From: Dictyostelium discoideum
Taxonomy: Eukaryota
Assembly: GCA_000004695.1 (NCBI GenBank)
Contig: CH709167.1
Location: forward strand, 1 to 2,308
Direction of reading: 5' to 3'
Length of the DNA stretch: 2,308 nt
Of the stretch, positions 458 to 2,308 are shown in pieces (the first letter of the stretch is position 1; each line of letters begins with the position of its first letter). The notes beneath the pieces were generated by a model. That model did not search any database and was not told where the DNA came from. It worked only from the letters and a program-made list of their open reading frames with translations. The translations under genes and the position numbers were made by a program.

Positions 458-574
458 ATGTCTACCACTGTTAATAATAATGAAGCCTCTAGTAGTAGTA
501 CCTCTGCCTCTAATAGCGCTGAATCCTTTGATTTAAGAATGAAATCAATGGAGGATCAAATCAACAACAATTGA
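458..574 (+). CDS. N-terminal segment in frame 2 (MSTTVNNNEASSSSTSASNSAESFDLRMKSMEDQINNN*), 38 codons, ending at a TGA at 572-574.
   Basis: Apart from 1031 and 2291, this is the only true ATG with good context upstream of the long ORFs. Its Ser/Asn-rich composition is typical of a yeast N-terminus. Frame 1 is simultaneously open from 532, so a single T gain at 'aattg' (to 'aatttg', 569-573) would fuse the two segments. Confidence 0.4.
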   Translation: MSTTVNNNEASSSSTSASNSAESFDLRMKSMEDQINNN

Positions 575-1092
575 ATAATCATACGACACCACCATCATCA
601 CCCAACATTACAACACCAATAACTTCAGCAGCAATAACCAACACAATAAAGAAATCATTAGGAAAAATTAAAACTGATGATACCGACCACCAGTTGTTAC
701 ATGGTAGCTTCTCTTCTGGTTGTAAAGTCTGTACAACTAATCAAGGTATCCTCTATGGTATTGAGGAAGAAAAAGAAAACCTGATGTTCAAATTCATTGG
801 ATCTTCACCAAACAAGCCAGCTGGAAGTACTTTTGCCAATACTAGCTCCAGAGAAGATGTTCAAGTTATGTGTATCAAGAGATATGGTATTATCGTGTCC
901 AAAGATATTGGTTCAACTATTTATCAATTGGCAAGAAGTAATAATACCGAAACCGAAACCGTCTTAGATGATCTCATTGAAACAGGAAAGTTCGACGAAG
1001 AACTATCAAGATTAGTCTCCTGTGTAACCGATGGAATTAATGGTATTATTTCAACTTGGAATGAAAGTAGAACAATTAGAGTTTTCCAATAA
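571..1092 (+). CDS. Main frame-1 segment of the hypothetical protein, 173 aa. Frame 1 is open from 532 and has no ATG of its own; the track start is TTG.
   Basis: This is the longest ORF in the window and has yeast-preferred codons. It is probably continuous with the 458 ATG segment after a 1-nt frame correction. I recognise no domain. Confidence 0.55.
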   Translation: MNNHTTPPSSPNITTPITSAAITNTIKKSLGKIKTDDTDHQLLHGSFSSGCKVCTTNQGILYGIEEEKENLMFKFIGSSPNKPAGSTFANTSSREDVQVMCIKRYGIIVSKDIGSTIYQLARSNNTETETVLDDLIETGKFDEELSRLVSCVTDGINGIISTWNESRTIRVFQ

Positions 1093-1387
1093 AGTCCGTG
1101 TTCGTTTATTCATGAAGTTATACAACAAGAAAATTCAACACGAGCTCGCTACCAGTGCAAATGCTGTCTACAATAATTCAATTGGGTGGAATGAATTCAA
1201 ATTGGCTGTACAACAAGAGATTTCAATTGGTGAACAATATAATCTCCAAAAGCTCAAGAAGATGTTAGTCATTTCATTTAATGTCCAAGGTAACGTAAGT
1301 ATTAGTGAACACTCTAAAGCTTTCATAAAAAACGTTAACCAATTAAGAAATACCCAAATCAGTTTCCAAATGACGCTGTCCTGTTAG
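1031..1387 (+). CDS. Frame-2 segment of the same hypothetical protein, 118 aa. Frame 2 is open from 1028.
   Basis: It overlaps the end of the frame-1 ORF by about 60 nt with both frames open. A one-base change in the T run at 1081-1085 ('gttttcc') would join ...TIRV to SNKVRV.... Confidence 0.5.
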   Translation: MELMVLFQLGMKVEQLEFSNKVRVRLFMKLYNKKIQHELATSANAVYNNSIGWNEFKLAVQQEISIGEQYNLQKLKKMLVISFNVQGNVSISEHSKAFIKNVNQLRNTQISFQMTLSC

Positions 1388-1524
1388 GATGGTATTTCGA
1401 GACGTTACCAATCCAAGTAAAGGATTCAGATGCAGCATCTACCATCGTTACTTCAGGAACCAATTTGATAGGAGGAATAGGTAGAAGTTATCAACAAGCA
1501 ATCGTTGGTAACATTAACCTCTGA
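1339..1524 (+). CDS. Frame-1 open stretch of 62 codons (PIKKYPNQFPNDAVLLGWYFETLPIQVKDSDAASTIVTSGTNLIGGIGRSYQQAIVGNINL) that bridges the two frame-2 ORFs. It may be coding, or it may be intron sequence.
   Basis: It is the only stop-free frame across 1388-1480 and has a protein-like composition. It also lies inside the candidate intron at 1295-1574. Confidence 0.25.
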   Translation, partial: PIKKYPNQFPNDAVLLGWYFETLPIQVKDSDAASTIVTSGTNLIGGIGRSYQQAIVGNINL

Positions 1525-1786
1525 TATCGGTAGAAACGAAACCGATGCTACTAACAAATTTTATTCCGTTCTAGATTCTTATGTTCCAGTGAAGGAAGTA
1601 AGAATAAACCAAATACAAAATTATAGATTCAATAATTCCAATAGTCAAGGTCGTGCAGGTGGTTCCAATAATCAAGATGAATCTGATGGTCAATATCTTA
1701 GCAATGGATTCAACAATGGTTCAAGATTTAATAATGGCCAAAGATTTGATAATAACTCAAGGTTCTCTGGTAATCCAAGGTTTTAA
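1505..1786 (+). CDS. C-terminal frame-2 segment (open from 1481), Asn/Gly/Ser/Arg-Phe-rich (…NGFNNGSRFNNGQRFDNNSRFSGNPRF*).
   Basis: This is a 93-aa track ORF whose TTG start is not a real initiation codon. It ends at a TAA at 1784-1786, followed by an AT-rich terminator-like flank. Confidence 0.45.
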   Translation: MVTLTSDIGRNETDATNKFYSVLDSYVPVKEVRINQIQNYRFNNSNSQGRAGGSNNQDESDGQYLSNGFNNGSRFNNGQRFDNNSRFSGNPRF

Positions 1787-1925
1787 TATTGGCCCAAGAA
1801 GTTCCAATAATTATGATAGAAACTTAAAAATTTAATTTATTAAATTATATTTTATATTAAATATATATATATATATATATTATGAATAACATTTATTTAT
1901 TTGAATTTCCCAAATATTTAAGATA
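1787..1925 (+). terminator. AT-rich 3' flank of the gene, likely the 3' UTR and polyadenylation region.
   Basis: It carries TATATA-type and A-rich elements downstream of the TAA at 1786 (aataattatgatagaaacttaaaaatttaatttattaaattatattttatattaaatatatat). No discrete hairpin terminator is expected in a eukaryote. Confidence 0.3.
1826..1880. repeat. Left arm of a perfect inverted repeat: aaaaatttaatttattaaattatattttatattaa followed by (AT)10.
   Basis: Positions 1826-1876 are the exact reverse complement of 2200-2250 (51 of 51 nt). The arm begins inside the 3' end of the frame-3 ORF at 1833-1835. Confidence 0.85.
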
Positions 1926-1932
1926 ATTTTTT

Positions 1933-1952
1933 AGAATGTTCTAGAACATTCG
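1933..1952. promoter_or_regulatory. Heat-shock element, four perfect contiguous inverted nGAAn units: aGAAtgTTCtaGAAcaTTCg. It is also an 18-bp perfect palindrome, GAATGTTCTAGAACATTC.
   Basis: The alternating GAA and TTC triplets at exact 5-bp phase match the Hsf1 trimer site consensus, which needs at least 3 units. The element lies about 175 bp upstream of the TATA box at 2126. Confidence 0.5.
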
Positions 1953-1958
1953 AAGAAT

Positions 1959-2083
1959 AAAAAATTTTCGAAAGAAAAGTAAAAATTTCGAACCGGCACA
2001 ATGACGCGATCATTGTGTAAGGTCGAAAAACTGAAAAATTCCGAACCGACACTATGCACAAAGTTGTGAAGGGTCGAAAACTC
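1959..2083. repeat. Imperfect tandem repeat of about 50 bp. One partial unit (1959-1980) is followed by two units (1981-2033 and 2034-2083), each starting AAAAATT(T)(C)CGAACC and ending GGTCGAAAA(A)CT.
   Basis: Units A and B align at roughly 70% identity. CG-containing motifs (TTCGAA, CGAACCG, GGTCGAAAAC) recur in a region that is otherwise almost free of CpG. Confidence 0.6.
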
Positions 2084-2104
2084 TTATTTTTTGAGTTTTG
2101 CGAA

Positions 2105-2165
2105 ATTTTTAAGAAAATAAAAACGTATAAATAGTGGCACTAAAAACTAAAACAATTTGATTTAT
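2105..2165 (+). repeat. Copy 2 of the 61-bp exact direct repeat. It extends to the shared 'ggaattcc' at 2166-2173.
   Basis: It is identical to 261-321. It contains TATAAATA at 2126-2133, about 165 bp upstream of the ATG at 2291. Confidence 0.9.
2126..2133 (+). promoter_or_regulatory. TATA box (TATAAATA) in repeat copy 2, candidate core promoter for a downstream gene starting at 2291.
   Basis: It sits in the same sequence context as 282-289. An ATG at 2291 with A at -3 lies 165 bp downstream. Confidence 0.4.
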
Positions 2166-2179
2166 GGAATTCCGACTAA

Positions 2180-2195
2180 GGGCGGGTGGGATGGG
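2180..2195 (+). other. G-quadruplex-forming motif GGGcGGGtGGGatGGG (G3N1G3N1G3N2G3).
   Basis: Four G3 runs with 1-2 nt loops form a GC island inside sequence that is more than 85% AT, between the TATA box at 2126 and the ATG at 2291. Confidence 0.45.
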
Positions 2196-2199
2196 ACTA

Positions 2200-2250
2200 A
2201 TATATATATATATATTTAATATAAAATATAATTTAATAAATTAAATTTTT
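2200..2250. repeat. Right arm of the inverted repeat: (AT)8 followed by ttaatataaaatataatttaataaattaaattttt.
   Basis: It is the exact reverse complement of 1826-1876. Together the arms bracket the HSE, the tandem repeats, the TATA repeat copy 2 and the G4 motif. Confidence 0.85.
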
Positions 2251-2263
2251 AATTTATATTATC

Positions 2264-2289
2264 ATATATATATATATATATATATATAT
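2264..2289. repeat. (AT)13 microsatellite immediately upstream of the ATG at 2291.
   Basis: The run is seen directly. Further (AT)n tracts lie at 1861-1882 and 2200-2215, and (AC)6 lies at 357-369. Confidence 0.9.
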
Positions 2290-2290
2290 T

Positions 2291-2308
2291 ATGAAATTTG
2301 GACGACAG
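2291..2308 (+). CDS. Possible 5' end of a downstream gene (ATG AAA TTT GGA CGA CAG = MKFGRQ…), truncated by the window edge.
   Basis: The ATG has A at -3, and GC content rises abruptly after a long AT-rich leader. A TATA box lies 165 bp upstream and the HSE about 340 bp upstream. Only 6 codons are visible. Confidence 0.2.

Follow-up and report, generated by a model that had tools for sequence, protein, structure and literature searches.

The window, by which we mean the whole 2,308-nt stretch of Dictyostelium discoideum DNA analysed here (assembly GCA_000004695.1, contig CH709167.1, positions 1 to 2,308), contains no host gene, and every segment of it is transposon debris. Judged from its sequence it is composed of a piece of a gypsy-type retrotransposon and of pieces of at least two, probably three, insertions of DIRS-1. 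One of the latter, 1824-2308, is the subject of this report. Another, on the plus strand at 261-568, starts within a left LTR that has lost its 5' side and retains the inner part, continues through the 5' leader and stops after 37 codons of ORF1/GAG (ATG at 458). It is 93.6-95.8% identical to L003:809-1120 and L004:8673-8981, two D. discoideum loci in which ORF1 follows downstream, and includes the first copy of a 61-bp segment (261-321). A third DIRS-1 fragment occupies the minus strand at 1-263; in it pol begins before ORF1 has reached its 3' end, and the fragment is 95.8% identical to L003:2188-1928. Its ORF1 ends in ..GSPSNVASGSNNTKSSNGTNNRFQKNKK* like that of L003, the start of its pol ORF reads ..VGGRLFHHKQVWKELGLPNF.., and the product shares 95% identity with P0003, a protein of AX4. 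Between 569 and 1823 lies, on the plus strand, a frameshifted gag of a Ty3/gypsy-type LTR retrotransposon of the Skipper/DGLT kind. It is collinear with L001:10216-11205 at 73-79% DNA identity, and in L001 the gag is followed by RT, RNase H and 517-aa integrase ORFs. BLASTN found no match to 569-1823 in the DIRS-1 loci L003 and L004. Mosaics of DIRS-1 and fragmented Skipper have been described for D. discoideum centromeric regions (PMC5633606).

The long ORF at 458-1835 was rejected as a single gene. It is a chimera of the 37 DIRS-1 ORF1 codons and the frameshifted gypsy-type gag, joined out of frame at a CAACAAC microhomology, and the apparent gene is split over several frames. A Pfam scan of the ORFs of the window gave nothing significant, and their protein relatives were Dictyostelium hypothetical proteins only. 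A composite query of DIRS-type peptides, on the other hand, retrieved more than 120 Dictyostelium proteins with RVT_1 (PF00078) or tyrosine-recombinase (PF00589) domains; L003 and L004 are the D. discoideum DNA around two RVT_1/PF00589 proteins of that search.

Within this mosaic the initial annotation had singled out 1826-1876 as the exact reverse complement of 2200-2250. This was confirmed and proved slightly understated. The perfect inverted repeat measures 53 nt instead of 51, 1824-1876 being complementary to 2200-2252 at 53 of 53 positions, and with one mismatch allowed it reaches 56 nt (1821-1876 and 2200-2255). The inner boundary of the match is abrupt, and 323 nt separate the arms. Perfect inverted repeats did not exceed 15 nt (means of 10.6-11.5 nt) in 300 dinucleotide-preserving shuffles, whether 1800-2308 or the entire window was shuffled. 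When 1815-2300 was folded as single-stranded DNA both arms were paired in the MFE and in the centroid structure, at a predicted energy of -84.6 kcal/mol compared to -38.0 ± 4.4 kcal/mol for shuffled sequences (z = -10.7). The HSE, the second copy of the 61-bp TATA segment and the G4 motif that had been described between the arms are all present, at 1934-1951, 2105-2165 and 2180-2195, respectively.

The identity of the region emerged from its alignment by BLASTN to L003:5145-4665, which runs on the minus strand as a single block with 93.5% identity over 490 nt. L003 carries an apparently complete DIRS-1 copy with ORF1, an RVT_1 gene and a tyrosine-recombinase (YR, PF00589) gene in this order (1010-4684); as a comparison copy it is slightly decayed, with 4590 bp versus 4814 bp of the reference and an internal stop in ORF1. 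The counterpart of 1824-2308 is situated directly downstream of the PF00589 gene, where the stop codon of the YR ORF (4682-4684) is followed by an 88-nt ICR. The reverse complement of this ICR consists of the end of the right LTR joined to the start of the left LTR, i.e. the circle junction, and the correspondence is exact within L003. The LTRs of L003 are inverted and 96.9% identical over 327 columns (left versus reverse complement of right); their outer ends differ, with tttatattatc.. on the left and ttaaaaatttaatttattaaattatattt.. on the right. Inverted, non-identical terminal repeats with an extension on the right only are therefore seen in the L003 pair, the window holding one right LTR and a left-LTR fragment that is unrelated to it. 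Likewise, a tyrosine recombinase, RT/RNase H and a GAG-like ORF1 were found via L003 and the protein P0058, the window copy displaying the YR end only.

These features agree with the published dimensions of DIRS-1 (Tdd-1, GenBank M11339), an element of 4814 bp with the right LTR beginning at about position 4465 and an ICR of 88 bp, whose first 33 nt complement the left LTR at its 5' end and whose other 55 nt are the exact complement of the right-LTR 3' end (PMC7192593). The right LTR of the window has 350 bp, the length of reference positions 4465-4814 (PMC7192593). Shared with DIRS-1 are furthermore LTRs that are inverted, measure about 330-350 bp and carry a putative heat-shock/TATA promoter, an ICR immediately behind the YR ORF and shortly before the right LTR, an R/R' pair of 53 nt in the window versus 55 nt with L' adjoining, and the occurrence in multiple copies clustered with Skipper-type debris in the same organism group. 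The comparison of dimensions left differences in microsatellite lengths only. The assignment rests on new Dictyostelium assemblies together with these published dimensions. On this basis we consider it nearly certain that 1824-2308 represents the 3' end of a reversed DIRS-1 tyrosine-recombinase retrotransposon and that the inverted repeat is its R/R' pairing.

DIRS1-like elements in general have the layout lITR-lICR-rICR-rITR-rE, and their right ICR is theoretically 100% complementary to the right terminus (PMC3266345). [quoted passage not shown] 2011, PMC3266345). The absence of a duplication around the arms is consistent with their integration without a target-site duplication. DIRS1-like elements elsewhere differ by shorter ITRs of 66-316 bp and by other sequences (PMC3266345). 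The heat-shock promoter is a Dictyostelium feature.

Read in the order of the window, the DIRS-1 copy on the minus strand begins with R, the 3' terminus of the right LTR (1824-1876), which aligns to the end of the DIRS-1 copy at L003:5093-5145. Position 1824 is the 3' end of DIRS-1 in the window, where it abuts the gypsy-type gag DNA. The sequence of R differs from that of the start of a left LTR. The outer ~29 nt of R (1824-1852) make up the right extension rE, which has no counterpart in the left LTR. The right LTR as a whole extends over 1824-2173, and its antisense inward promoter reads left-to-right on the plus strand. On that strand are the HSE GAAnnTTCnnGAAnnTTC (1934-1951), made of four contiguous alternating GAA/TTC units, and the TATA box TATAAATA (2126-2133), which is part of the second copy of the 61-bp LTR segment (2105-2165, 100% identical to 261-321). 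According to our alignment of right ends (A1) a spacer of 26 nt (2174-2199, minus strand) connects the inner end of the right LTR with the ICR (2200-2295, minus strand). R', the ICR half that complements the right-LTR 3' end, is the right arm (2200-2252); it is internal and lies shortly before the right LTR. L', the half that complements the left-LTR 5' end, has 43 nt (2253-2295) and overlaps the YR stop codon. On the plus strand L' reads tttatattatc(at)n ttatgaa, as does the start of the left LTR at L003:558-590 except for the (AT) length. The ICR has 96 nt compared to 88 nt in the reference and L' 43 nt compared to 33 nt, because of longer (AT) runs only. A self-comparison of the window also displayed a direct repeat (1821-1886 versus 2230-2295) and a palindrome (2200-2285), both of which arise because L' resembles the end of the right LTR. 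The region closes on the minus strand with the last codons of the YR ORF, ..TVVQIS at 2292-2308, and its stop codon (2289-2291). The reverse complement of 2289-2308 matches L003:4665-4684, and the PF00589 protein P0058 has the same C-terminus, ...NTVVQIS. The copy is thus visible from its 3' end alone, with 17 nt of YR coding sequence inside the window and its own left LTR beyond it.

The opposite orientation, with the DIRS-1 sense on the plus strand of the window and the left arm as R', was considered and rejected. L' would then fall into a repeat motif of the gypsy gag (1788-1820), the LTR promoter would face outward, and the reversed BLAST block to L003 that runs into the end of the YR ORF contradicts it.

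A question within the DIRS-1 explanation, and not a separate identity, is whether the copy is a dead 3' fragment in a mosaic of the centromere type, so that the inverted repeat would be a relic without function at this site. The make-up of the window, in which three DIRS-1 pieces are combined with a frameshifted gag of gypsy type, speaks for this, as do truncated right ends in L003 and L004 and the proportion of about 40 intact DIRS-1 copies to 200-300 fragments (PMC3950715). Yet the arms are perfect at 53 of 53 positions and the block 1824-2308 continues uninterrupted to the edge of the window, as for a recent and possibly intact insertion. We regard a dead fragment as a real possibility, although one to which we give somewhat less than an even chance.

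The bracket of R and R' recurs at seven further right LTRs, which come from four Dictyostelium species; its arms there measure 48-58 nt and are 94-100% complementary. The copy of D. discoideum in L003 has arms of 53 nt (96%) with 323 nt between them, the same distance as in the window, and that of D. cf. discoideum in L007 has arms of 56 nt (96%) with 353 nt between them. Three copies of D. citrinum in L005 have arms of 53-56 nt (98-100%) at distances of 258-264 nt. The two copies of D. dimigraforme in L006 have arms of 58 and 48 nt (97% and 94%) and distances of 248 and 237 nt. All seven are located directly after a YR gene, in a sample that is biased since L005-L007 were fetched through YR proteins. 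The sequence is multi-copy, and the structure always occurs within DIRS-1. Truncated copies (L001; L003:15212-15572) retain the core and part of one arm only.

The arms are species-specific in sequence yet still complementary to each other. In alignment A1 99% of 402 cells pair; sliding the partner by 1-3 columns lowers this to 27-55%. At five paired positions both sides have changed (12 cells), and the covariation score was reached by none of 500 shuffles.

The HSE at 1934-1951 is perfect and unique in the window, with 0 expected from 200 shuffles, and precedes the TATA box (2126-2133) by ~175 nt. In the assigned orientation both point into the element, which agrees with the right LTR driving antisense transcripts (PMC3950715). 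Both LTRs of DIRS-1 act as promoters, and heat shock induces the E1 antisense transcript from the right end (PMC3950715); the share of the right LTR that is included in the mRNA differs between PMC3950715 and PMC7192593. HSE and TATA box are parts of this known heat-shock-responsive LTR promoter. The stress-responsive promoter that the initial annotation had seen in the module would accordingly be the heat-shock LTR promoter of DIRS-1, with the HSE found here and the inducibility taken from PMC3950715. Among the compared copies the heat-shock promoter seems to be confined to D. discoideum and D. cf. discoideum. The foldback and cruciform readings had also been offered as a mechanism for the copying of the promoter segment. 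No such mechanism is needed: the 61 bp are LTR sequence that the left and the right repeat have in common, and their two copies follow from the pair of LTRs in DIRS-1 and from the presence of several insertions in the window. It was rightly noted that the copy at 261-321 has no arms; it belongs to a 5'-truncated left LTR, and left LTRs lack arms because only right LTRs adjoin an ICR.

The HSE, TATA box and G-tract that the arms enclose, with nothing else recognisable downstream in the window, might also suggest a host regulatory palindrome, a cruciform or an AT-rich fragile site that evolved in place for a neighbouring gene. However, the window is free of host genes and full of transposon debris, the same structure exists at many loci of four species and always within DIRS-1, and the promoter is the known LTR promoter (PMC3950715). 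We consider such a palindrome very improbable on these grounds. As for the cruciform or fragile site proposed before, the DIRS-1 anatomy makes neither necessary. A spacer of 323 nt is far too long for efficient cruciform extrusion, and a cruciform is therefore unlikely.

Still less probable, to the point of being negligible, is a 425-bp MITE-like or foldback element with the arms as its termini that captured a stress promoter and moved as a unit. Long perfect arms, the multi-copy sequence and the strong pairing of the arms in single-stranded DNA would fit, since MITEs and foldback (FB) transposons have long inverted repeats around a short AT-rich segment and form strong single-strand hairpins. 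But in MITEs and FB elements both arms are termini and a target-site duplication is present, while in the window one arm is internal to a retrotransposon of 4.6-4.8 kb. The homology runs 56 nt past the right arm to the end of the window (2253-2308), and in L003 it extends into a 4.6-kb element with GAG, RT and YR genes. No direct repeat flanks the arms at 1824/2252 or 1826/2250 (..gaaac|ttaaaaa versus ..ttttaa|tttat), and the short unit was not encountered as independent copies in unrelated contexts in the YR-biased sample, where the seven other two-armed copies each follow a YR gene. The truncated copies with core and one partial arm are equally at odds with a mobile 425-bp unit. A target-site duplication is not expected for tyrosine-recombinase elements (PMC3266345). 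Of the original proposal, the transposon origin, the multiple copies and, by its sequence, the heat-shock promoter hold; the arms are real, too, but they do not delimit a unit, because the right one is internal.

We return to the DIRS-1 right end and its spacer (2174-2199), which is absent from left LTRs and hence specific to the right end. Its sense strand, with respect to DIRS-1, is rich in C; the antisense or cDNA strand is rich in G, and there GGGCGGGTGGGATGGG (2180-2195) conforms to the motif G3N1-2G3N1G3N2G3. Nine of 11 spacers keep all four C3 tracts, and the species variants differ in the loops only. The four G3 tracts are kept in four species, and all five between-species substitutions fall within the four loop positions. 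In 123.5 kb of fetched Dictyostelium DNA there were 10 canonical G4 motifs, and all of them were the DIRS-1 right-end spacer. The single-stranded cDNA intermediate and the heat-shock/lasDIRS-1 antisense RNAs have the polarity of this antisense strand as well. The spacer may be a selected G-quadruplex (antisense) or i-motif (sense) with a part in DIRS-1 replication or antisense regulation, but with few independent lineages compared we hold this to be rather doubtful. The spacer was discarded as an analogue of a polypurine tract, because its purine-rich strand is the antisense strand and not the plus-strand RNA. The genome-wide G4 paper on D. discoideum does not mention DIRS or transposons, and the spacer is likewise absent from the G-quadruplex literature examined. 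A full-text literature search with substrings of the module matched only an unrelated human G4 paper.

How such a right end would be used follows from the accepted replication model of DIRS elements, which is reportedly due to Cappello in 1985 and to Poulter and Goodwin in 2005 and was tested by Malicki et al. In outline, the missing sequence of the left LTR would be rebuilt using the right LTR. Next, the termini L and R would pair as neighbours with the ICR (L'R') of the same strand, and the ICR would act as splint and template by which the exact ends are restored and the circle is closed. The tyrosine recombinase would finally integrate the circle without a target-site duplication. Transcription of DIRS-1 starts close to the inner left-LTR end, and the cDNA intermediate of the element is single-stranded, mostly linear, antisense and without the left LTR (PMC7192593). 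Deletion of the ICR abolishes retrotransposition, but leaves cDNA synthesis intact (Malicki et al. 2020, PMC7192593). That the ICR is required, that the LTRs act as promoters and that heat shock is an inducer is thus known from the literature, while the identity, order and dimensions of the parts, the recurrence of the bracket, the compensatory changes and the predicted pairing come from the present analysis. The scheme is reminiscent of the R regions of retroviruses and LTR retrotransposons, in which the pairing of repeats also regenerates complete ends from a sub-genomic RNA. Yet retroviral R is a direct repeat used for template jumps, whereas the repeats of DIRS-1 are inverted and their pairing with the ICR splints the ends for circularisation.

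We infer that the copy in the window was made by this ICR-splint route and that its perfect arms reflect a fairly recent insertion. In every replication cycle R would be re-copied from, or matched to, R', which would explain both the perfect arms of young copies and the joint change of the arms between species. Separate selection on each arm would then not be needed.

The pairing of R with R' and of L with L' in DIRS-1 is already known, and the structure in the window is neither a new MITE nor a regulatory palindrome. The complementarity was reportedly described by Cappello et al. in 1985 and is said to have been the defining oddity of DIRS-1 ever since. The perfect 53-nt inverted repeat is fully accounted for by this textbook anatomy. 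The conserved G-tract spacer beside the ICR may merit a small follow-up. The compensatory R/R' changes in four species are what is expected if the ICR is the splint and the template for the ends of the element.

The spacer that lies between the right LTR and the ICR of the reversed DIRS-1 3' end (window 2174-2199; columns ~114-140 in our alignment A1 of DIRS-1 right ends from the window and other loci) carries its G-tracts at 2180-2195. Further copies were found at L001:4562, in D. discoideum at L003:4771 and 10597, in D. citrinum at L005:406, 12047 and 14561, in D. dimigraforme at L006:5554 and in D. cf. discoideum at L007:8936. All four G3 tracts were present in 9 of 11 spacers from four species, and the differences between species were confined to the loop bases, which read AT/A/G, AT/A/A, AT/G/T or TG/A/G. 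In the 123.5 kb of Dictyostelium DNA analysed, ten canonical G4 motifs occurred, and every one of them was this DIRS-1 spacer. DIRS is not mentioned in the paper mapping G4 in D. discoideum.

The same alignment revealed differences between species in the LTR. A perfect heat-shock element (window 1934-1951; columns ~361-385) was found in the LTRs of D. discoideum and D. cf. discoideum, a degenerate one in the three D. citrinum LTR copies, and in both D. dimigraforme LTR copies it was deleted. Because the element is perfect, degenerate or deleted depending on the species, heat-shock control of DIRS-1 may be lineage-specific. Furthermore, a tandem duplication of ~51 bp within the LTR (window ~2000-2100, units 2013-2029 and 2064-2080; columns 237-287), which includes the 'ccgaac..gtcgaaaa' or TTCGAA-like repeats, was confined to the D. 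discoideum copies (window and L003) and missing from those of D. cf. discoideum, D. citrinum and D. dimigraforme.

The final 23 nt of this DIRS-1 copy (window 1824-1846, minus strand) read aatttaataaattaaatttttaa. A 5-bp A/T hairpin is possible in the part of it equivalent to reference positions 4792-4805, which is where Poulter and Goodwin, as cited in PMC7192593, placed a small 3' hairpin as a possible self-primer. Since A/T palindromes are frequent in this DNA, the match provides weak evidence.

Two junctions within the window look like microhomology-type rearrangements rather than recombinase-made ends. At 561-568, DIRS-1 ORF1 is fused at codon ~37, out of frame, with a gypsy-type gag, CAACAAC being common to both; at 260-263, a reversed DIRS-1 internal fragment joins a truncated left LTR with an overlap of 3 nt. 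A gypsy-type element at L001:10001-15261 has a gag homologous to window 569-1823. Its integrase ORF ends at 14918 and is immediately followed by a second gag start with an ATG at 14920. The gag N-terminus lies within a 300-nt direct repeat (10015-10314 and 14928-15227, 91%). These features suggest either that elements lacking a conventional LTR are arranged in tandem or that the gag start is part of an LTR. In the same locus, an array of 186-nt tandem repeats (3819-4188 and 5239-5791) is split by ~1 kb of DIRS debris (4189-5238), which includes a fragment of the RT thumb, an LTR that is inverted and lacks R, and a YR C-terminus.

Finally, further DIRS-1 ends were seen at other loci. At L003:12701-13118 (minus strand) a left LTR is followed by ORF1, and its outer end is R-type (ttaaaaatttaatttattaaattatattttatattaa..), like a right-LTR terminus, instead of the L-type start. 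A 50-nt stretch of L-type LTR start, together with 31 nt of filler, lies upstream of it. This left LTR looks to have been copied from a right LTR through the whole right extension, or to be a recombinant. Two right-end arrangements occur at L006:8992-9217 and L006:5803-5941. In one, the R', spacer and LTR of another copy begin 2 nt beyond the right end, as if DIRS-1 had inserted into a resident ICR where L' meets R'. In the other, the next element begins with its L-type start ~15 nt beyond the right end, giving an almost head-to-tail tandem similar to a circle junction. Both arrangements are relevant to the target choice and the multimeric intermediates of DIRS-1.
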